DNA from: Escherichia coli phage phiS
Sequence record: PP449093.1
Direction: 5' to 3' (one strand)
DNA: 64,000 nucleotides
Shown here in pieces: positions 9,287 through 64,000 of this stretch. Numbering within the stretch: position 1 is the stretch's first letter; each line of letters begins with the position of its first letter. The translations under genes were made by a program, and so were the position numbers. Under the pieces are notes generated by a model. The model had not been told where the DNA came from. It saw nothing but the letters and a program-made list of their open reading frames with translations, and did not search any database.

Positions 9287-9735
9287 GCATAGAAATATTG
9301 CATACACAAGATCAGATAAGCAATTTTAATCTGGTTGATTATCTGGGGATAGGTGCAAGCATTATTATCCTGATGGTGTTTTCAATTTTCGTGATACACT
9401 GGATGTTTAAGAAAGCACATAAGAATTTTCAGACCGCCATAATCCATGTCTTCGCTGTGCCTATTGTATTTGCGCTTTCTTCGTGTACACTGGACCATTA
9501 TTCACAGGAACCGAAATTACATCCTCCACTACCAGCACCAATAGAAAAAGTTGACATTGACCTGAAAGTGGATACAATAGACGGTAAACCTAGAGTTTCT
9601 ATGTCGTGGGAGGACTCCCAAAAATTCAGAGTCTGGCTTGCGGATATTAAGAGATATACACTTGAAAGTAAGTTGATCATGTGTTATTATCGAAAAGAAC
9701 TTAATGAGGAACGGTGCAAACCGAAGGAGAAATAA
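9283..9735 (+). CDS. Putative o-spanin lipoprotein (Rz1-like); true start may be the internal ATG at 9403
   Basis: Lipobox-like VFALSSC preceded by MFKKAHK plus hydrophobic stretch; proline-rich mature region; strong AAGGAGG RBS supports 9283 whereas the signal-peptide logic supports 9403. Confidence 0.45.
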   Translation: MSIEILHTQDQISNFNLVDYLGIGASIIILMVFSIFVIHWMFKKAHKNFQTAIIHVFAVPIVFALSSCTLDHYSQEPKLHPPLPAPIEKVDIDLKVDTIDGKPRVSMSWEDSQKFRVWLADIKRYTLESKLIMCYYRKELNEERCKPKEK

Positions 9736-12878: not shown

Positions 12879-13347
12879 AATTGATATCTATGCGGGTGGA
12901 CCTTATCCATCGGGTGAATTGAGTAATTTCAATAAAAGACCATTCCGTCTATTTGGTTGTGATATTAACAGCACAGAAGGATTTTTACAGGGGCTAAGAT
13001 TTAAGAACCCTCAGAGACAAAGAGAAATCTTTTTGATGCACGGTGGCAAAGCAAAAAGAACCGGAAGAACTGAAAAGATTGAGAATCACATGTTATATTT
13101 TCAGGGTCGCCAGATTCATCGAATGAGTGAGCATTATTACAGACTGGTACATCTGGCATTTGTTACGATGGCACGGAATAACCCAGAATTTTGTAAAGCA
13201 TTACTCGCTACAGGAAATAAGAAATTACGTCATAGCATAGGTGGAACTGATCCGTTAAAGACTATATTGACTGAATCGGAATTTTGTAGTATCCTCAATG
13301 ATATTCGTGAACGTTTAACAAAACGAGGTGAAAATGTCAATTCTTAA
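12868..13347 (+). CDS. NADAR-domain (YbiA/DUF1768-like) protein
   Basis: ELSNFNKRPF...STEGFLQGLRF and ALLATGNKKLRH blocks match the NADAR family signature. Confidence 0.6.
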   Translation: MTSEIDIYAGGPYPSGELSNFNKRPFRLFGCDINSTEGFLQGLRFKNPQRQREIFLMHGGKAKRTGRTEKIENHMLYFQGRQIHRMSEHYYRLVHLAFVTMARNNPEFCKALLATGNKKLRHSIGGTDPLKTILTESEFCSILNDIRERLTKRGENVNS

Positions 13348-14830
13348 TATCATTAACCAGCTTGCAGCGACCGACAAAACATCGCTGAAAGAAAAGATCC
13401 TGAAAGAATCCGCAAGTAATGAAACTCTGAAAGAATGCTTTTATCTGGCATATTGCAAACAGGTTACGTTTGGCGTAAAGAAATACGATAAACCATCGCG
13501 TTATTCGTCTGTATTGTCTTTATCCGGTGCATTACAGGTCTTTAAAAATAAACTTGCCACGCGTCAAGTAACTGGTAATGCAGCATTACAGCTAGTTACC
13601 GATACTCTGACTTGCTTGTCAGAGGATGATGCTAAAGTTGCAATGATGGTCCTGAATCGTGATCTGGAGTGTGGTTGTTCCGCTACCACTGCAAACAAGG
13701 TATGGAAGAAACTGATCCCCCAGCAACCGTGCCACCTTGCATCGTCATGTTCTGATAAGACTATTGCCAATATCAAATATCCGGCGTATGCACAACTTAA
13801 AAGCGATGGCGCTCGTGGTATGGCTGATATTGACGGGGAAACATTAGCAATCTATACCCGCTCAGGTAATACCTATCAAGGGCTTGATGATTTGTTTGCG
13901 GTTTTAGAGCGTCTACGAGGCCGTGGAATTGTTCTAGATGGCGAATTGGTATATATGCCTACCCTTTCGCAAACACCAGCGCAGAACTTCGTTGAGAGCG
14001 TTTATGATGGTACTCTGTCATGGATATTTGAAGAAGAGGAAATGCCATTAACGCCAGTAGCGGAAGCAGTGAAAGAATCCGTTGTTGCAGATCGTCAGAC
14101 CGGAAATGGTATCCTCAACAAATCACTTAAAGGAACTATTCCAAAAGAAGAAGCCCAATGTATTGTTTACACTGTCTGGGATGTTATCGACCGTGATGTG
14201 TATTACGGAAACGAGAAAGCAACGAAGCAATATAAAGATCGATTCGAAGAACTAAAACAGATTGTTGAAGAACTTAACGATCCTCGTGTTCAGATAATCG
14301 AAAATACTGTAGTTAACAATATCGATGAAGCTCGCGAAGTATATCATCGCTATGTAAACATGGGATTAGAAGGCATTATCCTTAAAAATTTACATGGTGT
14401 ATTTGAAGATCGTCGCAGTAAAGATCAGGTTAAATTTAAAGAAGTGATTGACTTCGACGCGGAAATTGTTGATGTATATCCGCATAGTAAAGATCCTAAT
14501 AAGGTAGGCGGTTTTACTGTCCGTAGTGCGTGCGGACGAATGATGACTAACACCGGATCGGGATTGACCGACACCACAACCGAAAAAGGCGATGATGGTA
14601 TTGAACGTGTGATTCCGTTTGACCGTCGAAATGAACTTGACCGAGAAATGTTATGGGCTGACCGTCATAACCTGATTGGAAAAGTCATTGAGATGACATG
14701 CAACGGGTATATCCGCAGCAAATCACGTAAAGAAGATGAACCGGAGTTCTCTTTATTTCTCCCAATCATAAAACGTATTCGCTACGACAAGACCACTGCA
14801 AATACAGTAAAAGAGGTATTCGATGTGTGA
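13334..14830 (+). CDS. 30: ATP-dependent DNA ligase
   Basis: Adenylation motif AQLKSDGARG (KxDG); overall resemblance to T4 gp30; RBS GAGGTGA. Confidence 0.95.
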   Translation: MSILNIINQLAATDKTSLKEKILKESASNETLKECFYLAYCKQVTFGVKKYDKPSRYSSVLSLSGALQVFKNKLATRQVTGNAALQLVTDTLTCLSEDDAKVAMMVLNRDLECGCSATTANKVWKKLIPQQPCHLASSCSDKTIANIKYPAYAQLKSDGARGMADIDGETLAIYTRSGNTYQGLDDLFAVLERLRGRGIVLDGELVYMPTLSQTPAQNFVESVYDGTLSWIFEEEEMPLTPVAEAVKESVVADRQTGNGILNKSLKGTIPKEEAQCIVYTVWDVIDRDVYYGNEKATKQYKDRFEELKQIVEELNDPRVQIIENTVVNNIDEAREVYHRYVNMGLEGIILKNLHGVFEDRRSKDQVKFKEVIDFDAEIVDVYPHSKDPNKVGGFTVRSACGRMMTNTGSGLTDTTTEKGDDGIERVIPFDRRNELDREMLWADRHNLIGKVIEMTCNGYIRSKSRKEDEPEFSLFLPIIKRIRYDKTTANTVKEVFDV

Positions 14831-38592: not shown

Positions 38593-39180
38593 ATGTTTGA
38601 CCAGTTACAAGATCTATTTGGAGTAAAACCACTTCGTAGATGTGCTTTAATCGGCTCTAGAAAAGCGCCTAGCGACATTTTGATAATGGCTAGTACCATT
38701 GGGAGGGTATTGTCAGAAAATCGCGTTGTAGCGCATTCTGGAGGGGCTTACGGTATGGACAATGCTTTCATGAAGTATTACGATCCAGATTATAGAAAAA
38801 TTTTCATTCCAAATTGGAAGTTTTATGACCACAAGCATAACGGGCATGATGTGATTGCATGGCAAACCTTAGAACAAAAAAATCTGGCGATGGATGAATT
38901 AGAACATGTTTATGATAATCCTCGTTCTATACCGTTATACATGCAAAATCTGTTTTCTAGAAATGTTGCTCAAGTCTTAGGTGAGACACTTGATGACCCT
39001 GTAGATTGTGTGATATTTTGGGCGAAAGAAGTTAATGGAATCGTTTCGGGAGGAACTAGAATTGCTGTTTATGTTGCCCGTAGACATGGGATACCATGTT
39101 TTAACTTATATCATCAAGAAAATAGATCCGCCGTCGAAAAAATCTTGGGCGGATCTGACTTGTCTTGGTTAGATATTTAG
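38593..39180 (+). CDS. DprA/Smf-like (SLOG-type Rossmann fold) protein
   Basis: ALIGSRKAP, HSGGAYGMDNAF and GIVSGGTRIAVYVARRHGIPCFNL resemble the DprA/LOG nucleotide-binding family. Confidence 0.45.
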   Translation: MFDQLQDLFGVKPLRRCALIGSRKAPSDILIMASTIGRVLSENRVVAHSGGAYGMDNAFMKYYDPDYRKIFIPNWKFYDHKHNGHDVIAWQTLEQKNLAMDELEHVYDNPRSIPLYMQNLFSRNVAQVLGETLDDPVDCVIFWAKEVNGIVSGGTRIAVYVARRHGIPCFNLYHQENRSAVEKILGGSDLSWLDI

Positions 39181-60412: not shown

Positions 60413-62215
60413 TTAACCTACCCTTAACCAGCGATGAACGGTACGATATGGAGGAAGAATACCCATCATTGATGGATCAGCATTTCCAGAATTAACTTTT
60501 ACGATATCCTCTCTATATTTCGTAAACGCTGGACCTGCCGCATCAGGATCAACTTGACAACCACCAATGATAATTGACCCTGTATCGTCTTTCACCAAAA
60601 CACGATCGCTGGATTGTAATTCAGGAATCATATCTTTCTTGATTTGATAGGCAACTTCACCACCAGTACCACCAGCGGTGTGTGTAGGTTGTCCATGAAT
60701 ATCAAGATCGTTATTGTTTAATGCAAAATTCTGGTCGCTGGCATCAGAAGACCAACCAGCAAGAAATTCTCCTTCCGCATACCGAACCCAGATACCAATA
60801 CCCATATATGTCGCTGGGTTAGCTGGGTTATGTGCGTTTTCGTATATCGTGCCGATCGGATGGAAAATATCAAACAGTGCATATATATCCATAATTCGAC
60901 CTGAATACTCTTCTGCCGGACGAGTGTTTTTCTGGCTAGGATTCTGGAAGTCGGTATATTCAATTTGTTTTGTTAAATTAACTTCGTCTTCGTTATTGAG
61001 ATAAATCTTGTCTGCTTTTTCTTTAATTCCGCCGACACCATCCCATTCTAATAGAGTTCCGATATCGTTATTAAACCAACGAATTGTTATAGTATCTCTA
61101 TTGTCCAACGCTTTAGCTAATTTAATCCCTGTTACAATGCTATTCTCATCAAATACCAGTGAATAATCTTCTCCAGACTGTACCCACTGACCGCCAGCAA
61201 GTGCGCAACTCTCTTCGGTTTCTCCGTCAGCACCTTCACAAACAAACGAAGGAAGATCAGCATCACCAGCTTTAATCATTTGAGTACCATTTATTAATAA
61301 CTCAAATGAATTTGGGTTAATTATATCACGTTTACTAACTCCCAAATCAGCATTGGTAAATTCTTTTTTCGTCGATAAATCACCTACCCACACTTCACCC
61401 GGAATAGTTTCTAGTGCTGTCATTCCGGTATCATACACTCTAATTGTGTGTGTGATATAACTAGATCGGAATGATGCAATTCCGTCCATATATGTAATAA
61501 TTTGAACGGTGTCCCCAGCCGAACAAGGAAAACGAAGTTTTATGCTTTTGCCATCAAGTTCAACAAGTGATCCATCCTCACCAATTGAACCGTAGTTAGA
61601 GTCATTACTAAAAGACTTGCCATAATATAAAAGGTTTCCTCGATAATATACTTCAACATTTCGAGTGTTATATGTGTTAGAACCAAATACATTAGGGAAA
61701 TCTGTTTGCCCTTCTGTGGCAATATAAACTTCCTTAGCTACTGTGCTTAGGTCAGACGTGGTGATCGTGTCAACTCGCTTGTTTTCGATATATTCCCAGC
61801 GTCCAGGCGCACAATAAACCAGTTCAACATCCATAAAATCTTTATACAACTCACGGTCGATTGGAGATCCCTTAATGGTATCACCTTGTGCTGGCTTCAA
61901 TGTTACGTTATGTGCAGCCCATGAGCGCCAAACATCACGAAGTTTAATTGTTTTATTGTAATCACTCGCGCTTCCTTTAGGCAATTCAACAGAAACAGCG
62001 TTGTTCGTTGTATTAATTGCCCATGCATCACCAAAATTTGGTTTTAATACTGGTTGTGTGTGAGTTTTCCACGCGCCGGATGCATGGGGGATATCACCGT
62101 CCCCCAGCTTAGTATAAAGTTCAGAAAAGTTGTCATTAATCTTTTGACCGCCTTTTCTTAGATAATCACCTGTACCGTCATCAACAACGTTACCGATATT
62201 AATTAATTGTTTCAT
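60413..62215 (-). CDS. 10: Baseplate wedge protein gp10
   Basis: 600 aa; position. Confidence 0.8.
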   Translation of the reverse strand: MKQLINIGNVVDDGTGDYLRKGGQKINDNFSELYTKLGDGDIPHASGAWKTHTQPVLKPNFGDAWAINTTNNAVSVELPKGSASDYNKTIKLRDVWRSWAAHNVTLKPAQGDTIKGSPIDRELYKDFMDVELVYCAPGRWEYIENKRVDTITTSDLSTVAKEVYIATEGQTDFPNVFGSNTYNTRNVEVYYRGNLLYYGKSFSNDSNYGSIGEDGSLVELDGKSIKLRFPCSAGDTVQIITYMDGIASFRSSYITHTIRVYDTGMTALETIPGEVWVGDLSTKKEFTNADLGVSKRDIINPNSFELLINGTQMIKAGDADLPSFVCEGADGETEESCALAGGQWVQSGEDYSLVFDENSIVTGIKLAKALDNRDTITIRWFNNDIGTLLEWDGVGGIKEKADKIYLNNEDEVNLTKQIEYTDFQNPSQKNTRPAEEYSGRIMDIYALFDIFHPIGTIYENAHNPANPATYMGIGIWVRYAEGEFLAGWSSDASDQNFALNNNDLDIHGQPTHTAGGTGGEVAYQIKKDMIPELQSSDRVLVKDDTGSIIIGGCQVDPDAAGPAFTKYREDIVKVNSGNADPSMMGILPPYRTVHRWLRVG

Positions 62216-63066
62216 GTAGCAACCCCGATTTTAATAGTGTCTACGGCTTTAACTGCTAAACGAATATTTTCGCCAGTAGCCTTATACTCTGCATATACTT
62301 TATCGCCGGAACCGATGAAATAACGAACTTTGTATAGCTCATCTTCTGTCTTCTGCAAAACTGCATATTCCGTCGCATAAACTTTTCCGGCTTTAGAATC
62401 AATCATCAGTAGCGTTTCACTTGAACGCATTTTTGAACCGGATGTATTGCTAGCGGTAGTTAATAATTTGATGGAAACGTATTCTGTTTTTGCGGCAATA
62501 GCAACGTTTGTTGCTACTCCAGTTACGTTAACTGTTTTATCTAATGGCATTGTTGTATCGGTAAACATACTTTCGATACCCAATCGCCATGTTACGCGAC
62601 TACCTTCAACGGCAGTACACCAAACAGTGACTTTTGAGAAAGGTTGAGTTATTACCGCGTCACCTGAATACCCGCTAATAGAATCACCTGCTTGAGTTCG
62701 AATATTGAGCGGTGTCGTCGTTGAAAAGCTACCGTTACTATTTATGAATACAACACCCTCACCAACCTTTGCTTTAGGTAGAATAGCAATAAGTGCGCCT
62801 TGAGTTGTATCGATATCGTGTAGACTCCCAATCTCAACAGCGGAACCAGCGTAGCTTTGACGTGGATGTTTCTGATAGTATCCGGTTGCATGAATAACCA
62901 TTCTTCCCACGCCGTGGTCTATGTCTTTAAACCGTTGATCAGCGAATGCGTCATAGATTGAATCAAAGTTATCGTTAATTTTATTACCGCCATCATATAA
63001 GATATCGCCAGTCGATGGATTGCCGACAGTACCTGTGTCTATTCTTTTCTTTGGAACTTGTGCCAT
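62212..63066 (-). CDS. 9: Baseplate wedge / long tail fibre connector gp9
   Basis: N-terminal IDTGTVGNPSTGDILYDGGNKINDNF and C-terminal KIGVA resemble T4 gp9. Confidence 0.8.
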   Translation of the reverse strand: MAQVPKKRIDTGTVGNPSTGDILYDGGNKINDNFDSIYDAFADQRFKDIDHGVGRMVIHATGYYQKHPRQSYAGSAVEIGSLHDIDTTQGALIAILPKAKVGEGVVFINSNGSFSTTTPLNIRTQAGDSISGYSGDAVITQPFSKVTVWCTAVEGSRVTWRLGIESMFTDTTMPLDKTVNVTGVATNVAIAAKTEYVSIKLLTTASNTSGSKMRSSETLLMIDSKAGKVYATEYAVLQKTEDELYKVRYFIGSGDKVYAEYKATGENIRLAVKAVDTIKIGVAT

Positions 63067-63141
63067 TGTTTAATTCCTCATGTTATGATGTATTATTTAT
63101 AAAATACATACAAAAAAGCCGCCCACAAGGACGGCTTATAA

Positions 63142-63981
63142 TTAAATGTCAAACAAATCTGAGAGCGTCCCAGACTCGCTTTCCTGTTTCGGTAAGGTAA
63201 TATCCTTACTTTCTTCTATTTGTTCGTTAGGACGTGATTTAGGCGCTTCTACGGCTTCTTTCTCGTAATACCGAACCTCAACCACTTCTGTTAAAACGTT
63301 GGTACTATGCCATTCATCGCGATAGATTGATGTATCGATCCCGCATCCGGCGTAAGTCACCAAACCAGTTTGTTTGCTCCATTTTAGATATTTATTAGAC
63401 TTCACTGATTCATCATAATAAGGTCTGCCGGAATAAGCAAACCCAGCGGAACTAGCAGGAACAATAAAATAACCTACATCGGCAAACTTCTGGCCTAACG
63501 TCATAACCTTAAATTCAAACTCACCGCCAGTATATTCAAATACATCCTTTGTGTCTGTAGTATTGATTTTACCGAAAGGTGGATTGCTGATCACCACATC
63601 GAATTTTTCGTTTGACTCAAATTCGAATACATCGCTGGTGATCCATTCTGCCTCCGGTAATAGTCGCTTGCCAATCAGCGCAAATTCTGGATTGAGTTCG
63701 ACGCATACGATCTTTTCTGGCTTACAACGATGTAACATACAAAAAGATAAGCGACCGATCCCCGCACAAAGATCTAATACTTTTCCGGTGCAATATGCAT
63801 CAATGGTAAAATCCCAGGCAAGCCATTCTGGGGTAAAGAATGCACCGGAACCACCTAGTCCATCGCCATGATAGTTGTTATAGCAAAATTCTTTTTCTTC
63901 AAATGTCAATGGACGATCTGAATTAATCAACTCCATCACCCGATCGTGTAATTTTTGTTCTTGTTTAGAAAGTCGTGCCAT
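63142..63981 (-). CDS. Class I SAM-dependent methyltransferase, gamma-class amino-MTase-like (candidate DNA N6-adenine/N4-cytosine MTase)
   Basis: Motif order X-I-IV: FFTPEWLAWDF, VLDLCAGIGRLS, VISNPPFGK; acidic C-terminal tail. Confidence 0.55.
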   Translation of the reverse strand: MARLSKQEQKLHDRVMELINSDRPLTFEEKEFCYNNYHGDGLGGSGAFFTPEWLAWDFTIDAYCTGKVLDLCAGIGRLSFCMLHRCKPEKIVCVELNPEFALIGKRLLPEAEWITSDVFEFESNEKFDVVISNPPFGKINTTDTKDVFEYTGGEFEFKVMTLGQKFADVGYFIVPASSAGFAYSGRPYYDESVKSNKYLKWSKQTGLVTYAGCGIDTSIYRDEWHSTNVLTEVVEVRYYEKEAVEAPKSRPNEQIEESKDITLPKQESESGTLSDLFDI

Positions 63982-64000
63982 TATTTAACCTTTGCTGTGA

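Follow-up and report, generated by a model that had tools for sequence, protein, structure and literature searches.

The window analysed here is a 64,000-nucleotide stretch of Escherichia coli phage phiS (sequence record PP449093.1). Near its end, the minus-strand gene at positions 63142 to 63981 encodes a protein (WWV92368.1) that is probably a small orphan S-adenosylmethionine (SAM)-dependent DNA methyltransferase, most likely acting on the N6 of adenine and recruited to the phage sliding clamp gp45 by a tail resembling the C-terminal end of gp43, the DNA polymerase of the phage. An initial annotation, made from the sequence alone, had described this open reading frame (ORF) as a gamma-class amino-methyltransferase with an acidic tail, located next to baseplate gene 9. 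The gene and its parts are as follows.

63142..63981, minus strand: methyltransferase coding sequence, 279 amino acids plus stop, ATG start, orthologue of RB49p143
63808..63840, minus strand: motif X, FFTPEWLAWDF, residues 48-58, from the translation and the family alignment
63745..63780, minus strand: motif I, VLDLCAGIGRLS, residues 68-79, SAM-binding loop, from the translation and the family alignment
63568..63594, minus strand: motif IV, VISNPPFGK, residues 130-138, with the catalytic NPPF, from the translation and the family alignment
63172..63267, minus strand: acidic linker, residues 239-270, of low confidence in AlphaFold2 and variable in sequence among Krischvirus copies
63145..63171, minus strand: terminal peptide GTLSDLFDI, residues 271-279, a putative gp45-binding motif by its likeness to the gp43 C-terminus

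The three motifs quoted in the initial annotation and the acidic tail are present in the translation as stated. Its gamma-order assignment is borne out both by the amino-methyltransferase motif order X-I-IV (FFTP at residues 48-51, DLCAGIG at 70-76 and NPPF at 133-136) and by the conservation of key residues. In an alignment of 77 homologues, P51, G74, G76, P109, N133 and P135 are invariant, while F48, F49 and T50 (each at least 90% conserved), C72, A73, I75 and E95 are nearly so; position 136 is aromatic in every homologue aligned. At the level of sequence, the SAM site and the NPPF amino-methyltransferase site are intact, and NPPF suggests adenine-N6 as the target. AlphaFold2 models residues 1-240 confidently (predicted local distance difference test score 91, predicted template modelling score 0.84) and the tail with low confidence. 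The catalytic core comprises 238 amino acids, and beyond residue 238 there is just a disordered linker followed by the nine-residue motif. The C-terminal 41 residues contain 11 D/E versus 5 K/R, with an isoelectric point (pI) of 4.3. At the other end of the protein, the N-terminal MAKLTK...H segment is conserved in the methyltransferase family.

The methyltransferase ends in ...ESGTLSDLFDI and RB49 gp43 in ...KVASLTDLFDI, so that six of the last seven residues are the same. The specificity of this match was evaluated on about 650 six-frame ORFs of at least 40 amino acids, taken from RB49 pieces and from the window and representing essentially a whole Krischvirus genome. A C-terminus of the form L[ST]DLFDI was found in gp43 and the methyltransferase only, and the more relaxed form [DE][LIVMF]F[DE][LIVMFW] in gp43, the methyltransferase and DNA ligase only. 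Within the window, the ligase is the only other protein with a polymerase-type C-terminal motif, and it serves as a control for motif specificity.

13334..14830, plus strand: ATP-dependent DNA ligase, 498 amino acids, PF01068, ending in ...TVKEVFDV

Polymerase, ligase and RNase H are the documented clients of gp45 in T4 (PMC3012046, PMC6212786). T4 gp43 binds the gp45 sliding clamp through its segment EKASLDFLFG (PMC6212786), and the clamp-binding motif of T4 RNase H is N-terminal (PMC3012046). RB49 RNase H (rnh, locus L015, 5830-6777, minus strand) carries TTATLNDFFDDPE at residue 13; this segment includes TLNDFFDD and fits both the Krischvirus clamp-motif consensus and the N-terminal site of the T4 RNase H clamp motif. 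Judged by sequence, a motif of this kind marks the known gp45 clients and this methyltransferase. The clamp itself, gp45, is not encoded in the 64-kb window. RB49 also carries dam (locus L011, 39922-40734, minus strand), a T4-type GATC Dam, and Krischvirus thus possesses at least two adenine-methyltransferase-like genes; no clamp-like motif was found at the C-terminus of RB49 Dam.

Two further observations concern other possible clamp clients. T4 ligase binds gp45 by an internal loop (PMC6212786), versus the C-terminal motif of the ligase in the window, and the docking site may have moved within the ligase family. A 195-amino-acid ORF of the window (38593-39180, plus strand) has the QLxDLF-like N-terminus MFDQLQDLFGVK and may be another client; its weak, DprA-like Pfam match is below threshold (22.3 versus 29.6 bits).

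RB49-like coliphages, which belong to the genus Krischvirus, match the region at 97-98.6% identity in 58 records, and the RB49 stretch including RB49p143 shares 96.9% DNA identity. A full-length gene, 92-99% identical, is present in each of the 58 records. Among these copies the linker drifts (KQESES, EQETAS, EDKSPS, EPVNSS) and SGTL[ST]DLFDI is fixed. The gp43 tail is conserved at 99% or more in 57 phage records and at 95-99% in one, a total of 58 that equals the number of records carrying the methyltransferase. Among T4-like coliphages, the gene was found only in Krischvirus, and it is absent from the 5-hydroxymethylcytosine (hmC)-containing Tequatrovirus and Mosigvirus.

When 1.84 billion representatives were searched exhaustively with HMMER, 698 clusters (50% identity) matched at E<=1e-3, of which 174 reached E<=1e-30. 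Conservation in 58 Krischvirus records and matches to 698 clusters argue that this is not a chance ORF. Since nearly all matches align to query residues 1-238, the family has a core of about 238 amino acids followed by tails of variable length. In PHROGs, the protein matches the family phrog_3820, ‘DNA methyltransferase’ (E 3.2e-115, with residues 1-250 aligned to positions 1-246 of the 255-position profile). Homologues occur in T4-like phages whose cytosines are unmodified or of unknown status (Slopekvirus KP15, Karamvirus-like phages, Aeromonas phages and a Morganella phage), as well as in jumbo phages, Rhizobium/Sinorhizobium phages and many alphaproteobacterial prophages. The family is essentially restricted to phages and prophages. 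Fusion partners in long homologues comprise one N6_N4_Mtase fragment and one zinc-ribbon region, neither of them decisive.

Homologues without a tail lie at the outermost position in lambdoid prophages of Citrobacter, Enterobacter and Salmonella. In Citrobacter and Enterobacter chromosomes (loci L003-L010), these tail-less copies, of 54-55% identity, form the last gene of the lambdoid prophage, abutting host genes in a moron-like position. A single sequence variant of the tail-less homologue is present on 887 Citrobacter contigs.

The gene and its family are already known as annotations, although inconsistent ones. Record names include ‘DNA methyltransferase’, ‘putative methyltransferase’, ‘hypothetical protein’, RNA methylase and ‘release factor glutamine methyltransferase’/prmC, and the names given in a collection of 15 billion proteins are all generic. 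The prmC or ‘release factor glutamine methyltransferase’ label carried by phages kaaroe, kvi, ECD7 and vB_EcoM_011D4 is unsupported, the PrmC model scoring 35 bits against a cut-off of 199.

Outside the T4-like phages, the tail of the family takes another form. Homologues from IMG/VR contigs and alphaproteobacterial genomes end in ...SQLSLFDAA, ...QADLFGVAA, ...GQMDLFGEAA, ...EQLALL and similar sequences, and the tails from alphaproteobacterial prophages and IMG/VR fit Q[LAM][SD][LI]F. The bacterial beta-clamp motif is QL(S/D)LF (PMC9690074). Among 90 tails (representatives at 50% identity with a tail of at least 10 amino acids), Qxx[LMIFV][FL] was found within the last 10 residues of 34, versus 1.1 expected from shuffled tails, and the strict Q[h]x[h]F form in 19, versus 0.1 expected. 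In species-representative genomes, the beta motif, Q[LA][SD]LF in alphaproteobacterial prophages, is present in 54 of 77 complete copies, and most of the others have a QxDLF-like motif slightly further in. When 12 beta-motif proteins were aligned, F was invariant and Q nearly invariant, after linkers differing in both length and sequence. The phiS protein has no beta-clamp pentapeptide at or near its C-terminus; the gp45-type motif stands in its place. With the balance about even, these phage-specific minimal DNA methyltransferases may form a family of clamp clients whose docking peptide is swapped between the beta and the gp45 type according to the clamp of each phage.

Among T4-like phages, the likeness to the polymerase tail varies. 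The KP15-type tail ...KSDLFTFTIE shows a partial likeness to its own polymerase (...SLNDLFGDW), sharing S-x-DLF, and the AS-zj copy, like those of enterobacterial prophages, is tail-less. Mimicry of the polymerase tail in every T4-like lineage was therefore rejected: the match is exact for Krischvirus, partial for KP15 and lacking for Morganella phage Mm5, and AS-zj has no tail.

The neighbourhoods of the gene also point to DNA. In beta-motif phages, it neighbours DnaB, Prim-Pol/AAA, SF2 helicase and RecT genes, and it directly adjoins MT-A70 and C5 DNA methylases. In KP15 and Mm5 it lies between the genes for helicase gp41 and primase gp61, and gp41 is found within 1.3 kb of it in 9 of 9 Slopekvirus/Karamvirus-like contigs. 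Helicase adjacency was rejected as a universal feature, since it holds for these nine contigs but for only 4 of 34 beta-motif contigs, the others having Prim-Pol, SF2 helicase or RecT. A conserved two-gene module was likewise rejected: KP15_26 and MM5_106 are homologous to each other, and neither is homologous to RB49p142. No replication genes were found near the tail-less copies at prophage ends. Neither an S subunit nor a restriction gene was found near the methyltransferase in the RB49, Citrobacter/Enterobacter prophage and KP15 loci inspected.

Tails of interest were also seen on neighbouring proteins. An MT-A70 DNA methylase directly upstream of a family member (locus L088, 9408-10001) ends in ...ANDNQDLLGRVA, resembling the ...ANDNQPPLQASLFGDAA of its neighbour; clamp-type tails may thus occur on further phage DNA methylase families. 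In alphaproteobacterial phage contigs, SF2 helicases near the gene (L088, 6301-8076; L096, 6372-8129) end in ...DDDIPF and ...DDDVPF, the signature of the C-terminal tail of single-stranded DNA-binding protein.

Several observations weigh against a clamp-recruited DNA methyltransferase. The Morganella phage Mm5 tail (...INVLEGI) is unlike that of its own polymerase (...LTDVFDI), and the tail is missing from 36 of 138 representative members and from 28 of 80 IMG/VR loci. The core is acidic (pI 5.0, with a family median of 5.3), and no separate target-recognition domain was found after the catalytic domain, the sole candidate recognition element being a 55-residue insert (residues 176-230) between strand 5 and the last strand. 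In Pfam, N6_Mtase (PF02384) scores 15.8 bits, below its cut-off of 20.4. The nearest solved relatives by sequence profile are RNA or protein methyltransferases (RsmC, 5.9e-7; PH1948, 7e-7; HemK, 2e-4), and DNA methyltransferases are weaker (EcoR124 HsdM, 1.7e-3; BseCI, 9e-3). With regard to the DNA itself, high-performance liquid chromatography-mass spectrometry (HPLC-MS) of Krischvirus TB34 revealed no modified nucleosides (PMC13390438), and the methyltransferase copy of this phage is 95% identical. RB49 DNA has served as an unmodified control, and DraI, HpaII and NheI all cut it (PMC4041780).

The HPLC-MS report on TB34 never mentions N6-methyldeoxyadenosine (PMC13390438), although GATC sites fully methylated by Dam would by themselves account for about 1.9% of adenines. 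The TB34 result therefore speaks against dense, non-specific methylation only and leaves room for methylation at specific sites. The cytosines of Krischvirus are generally reported as unmodified (PMC4041780). Krischvirus TB34 and SAP, 99.96% identical and without known pathway genes, differ in cytosine modification, with none in the former and glucosyl-hmC in the latter (PMC13390438); this difference is apparently unrelated to the methyltransferase, which both phages should carry.

The substrate was left open by the initial annotation on the grounds that the motifs are shared by DNA, RNA and protein methyltransferases, and the comparisons agree. Fold and profile searches place RsmC, METTL5/PH1948, HemK, M.TaqI, HsdM and BseCI in a similar range. 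The Pfam models above cut-off are MTS (36.4 bits, cut-off 23), which is a generic catalytic-domain model, Methyltransf_25 (31, cut-off 27) and Eco57I (PF07669; 26.2, barely above the cut-off of 25.3). An amino-methyltransferase of the RsmC/RsmD, METTL5 or HemK/PrmC type, acting on rRNA, tRNA or a translation factor of host or phage and resembling the polymerase tail by accident, would account for the nearest solved relatives, but we consider it unlikely. Homology to HemK/RsmC, which the initial annotation had named, together with a lack of modified bases in phage DNA, as speaking against DNA, exists weakly, in the generic catalytic domain; the curated NCBIfam models are all far below threshold, at 35 bits versus 199 for HemK/PrmC (TIGR03534/TIGR00536) and 25.9 versus 295 for the RsmC equivalog (NF007023), and on these scores both memberships were rejected. 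An RNA or protein substrate also leaves unexplained a clamp peptide conserved after hypervariable linkers, its switching between gp45 and beta types by phage, and the placement in replication modules beside DNA methylases, in a family that is essentially confined to phages and prophages. The proposal of a DNA methyltransferase is thus supported in part: the catalytic domain leaves it undecided, and the clamp-type tail, the beta-clamp motif and the replication modules point to DNA.

A second alternative accepts clamp binding and dispenses with protection. The enzyme could methylate a clamp-associated protein, or label DNA that has been replicated as ready for late transcription, for packaging or for discrimination in repair, or act mainly by competing for the clamp pocket. 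We regard this as improbable, to about the same degree as an RNA or protein substrate. Pure competition for the pocket is disfavoured by the invariance of the catalytic residues, and the close linkage to MT-A70 and C5 DNA methylases suggests the usual anti-restriction role of methylase clusters. In addition, the prophage-edge copies, tail-less and unlinked to replisome genes, would still need a substrate independent of the clamp.

The genomic context of the gene suggests when a clamp-recruited methyltransferase would be made. As noted in the initial annotation, the ORF lies next to baseplate gene 9; gp9 is the downstream ORF, followed by gp10, and the genes downstream on the same strand encode gp9, gp10, gp11, the short tail fibre and fibritin. 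The wedge gene that was expected upstream of gene 9 is found in RB49 as gp8, upstream by a further four small genes and past the window end. In RB49, late genes 8 and 9 are separated by an inserted cassette of four ORFs, of which the methyltransferase is the last, in the order gene 8, terminator, TTGACA-16-TATAAT promoter, three small ORFs, methyltransferase, terminator, TATAAATA and gene 9. The features that delimit the cassette are the following.

9575-9602 and 9616-9643 of RB49 locus L001, minus strand: cassette promoter with its preceding terminator, from the sequence
63116..63137, minus strand: intrinsic terminator closing the methyltransferase cassette, a 9-bp stem with 6 GC pairs and then a T run, annotated as a terminator in TB34
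63094..63101, minus strand: TATAAATA, putative T4-type late promoter box before gene 9, the downstream edge of the cassette, read from the sequence
62212..63066, minus strand: gene 9, baseplate wedge tail-fibre connector, T4_gp9_10_N, E 1e-40

The cassette promoter, located just past position 64000, is a perfect sigma-70 consensus (12 of 12 positions), with invariant hexamers and a variable spacer at five Krischvirus loci. At the other edge, TATAAATA, which we take to be a late promoter box from the T4 late promoter consensus, is predicted to restart late transcription for gene 9. With its own consensus promoter and terminators inside a late operon, the methyltransferase gene is therefore probably expressed early despite its late-operon location. 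The small ORFs of the cassette (51, 32 and 109 amino acids) have no homologues beside the methyltransferase outside this genus. A passenger gene of a mobile cassette, decaying or without function, with motifs and tail likeness as relics, would fit this insertion with small ORFs not conserved outside Krischvirus and the moron-like promoter and terminators, but it is already disfavoured and very improbable given a full-length gene in every Krischvirus record, catalytic residues invariant across the 77 homologues, a terminal motif that stays fixed as the linker drifts, and invariant promoter hexamers.

We therefore propose the following course for a clamp-recruited DNA methyltransferase in phiS. 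The gene would be transcribed early from its own sigma-70 promoter, in the cassette between late genes 8 and 9. The flexible acidic linker and the terminal peptide would then recruit the enzyme to phage gp45, so that it could ride clamps loaded on replicating phage DNA and methylate nascent DNA at the replication fork or behind it. The clamp would take the place of a target-recognition domain and supply the DNA tethering that is missing from the acidic core. Across the family, the core would remain constant and the docking peptide would be of the QLSLF-type beta form in temperate alphaproteobacterial phages and of the gp45 type in T4-like phages. The probable benefit would be the shielding of unmodified-cytosine phage DNA from host restriction. 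Such an anti-restriction role is likely because the gene is found in phages with unmodified cytosine and clusters with other phage DNA methylases.

In the usual picture, phage orphan methyltransferases act as free enzymes, in a race with host restriction enzymes to reach the sites on newly made DNA. If the proposal holds, clamp docking would explain how a small methyltransferase without a recognition domain wins this race, on DNA leaving the replisome. The gp45 and beta-clamp tool-belts would each gain a new kind of client, a viral counterpart of DNMT1-PCNA, and the terminal motif would offer a simple sequence rule by which phage genomes could be screened for modification enzymes coupled to replication. 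Every Krischvirus carries the gene, and phage-therapy collections make use of this genus; the gene may shape sensitivity to restriction-modification and bacteriophage exclusion (BREX) systems. The prediction of clamp docking is specific and directly testable.

The phiS protein is a direct member of the family of phrog_3820, RB49p143 and KP15_25, with no feature that sets it apart, and the names given to this family are generic or contradictory. In the literature searched, we found no characterised homologue, no functional study, no bacterial or phage methyltransferase with a clamp-binding motif and no description of a clamp-swapping methyltransferase family. With RsmC/RsmD, HemK/PrmC and METTL5/PH1948, the phiS protein shares its best profile similarity, over motifs I-IV, a compact single domain and an NPPF/Y loop; it differs from them in scoring below every curated cut-off, in its restriction to phages and prophages, and in having the MAKLTK...H segment, the 55-residue insert and the clamp-type tail. 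Compared with gamma N6-adenine methyltransferases such as M.TaqI, type I HsdM and the Eco57I/MmeI type, it lacks a separate target-recognition domain, an S subunit and a restriction partner; its core is just 238 amino acids, acidic and sub-threshold for N6_Mtase, and is followed by a disordered tail with a putative clamp peptide.

DNMT1 offers a precedent in mechanism, as a DNA methyltransferase with a short clamp-binding motif for PCNA whose methylation follows replication (PMC9690074). The two are analogous and not homologous, since their catalytic domains are unrelated (C5-cytosine in DNMT1, amino-methyltransferase in phiS); the phiS enzyme is a viral orphan with a C-terminal motif, and no maintenance logic is implied. 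The closest parallel is with the gp45 clients themselves (the gp43 C-terminus, ligase, RNase H, gp33 and gp55), which likewise present a short hydrophobic and acidic terminal peptide after a flexible segment. The gp45 partners described in the reviews PMC3012046 and PMC9690074 include no methyltransferase. The T4 ligase-gp45 interaction was itself discovered through a loop resembling the gp43 C-terminus, and was then established by isothermal titration calorimetry and crystallography (PMC6212786); our proposal takes the same route, from sequence likeness, for a methyltransferase whose peptide differs little from the one in gp43 and is also similar to the ligase and RNase H peptides.
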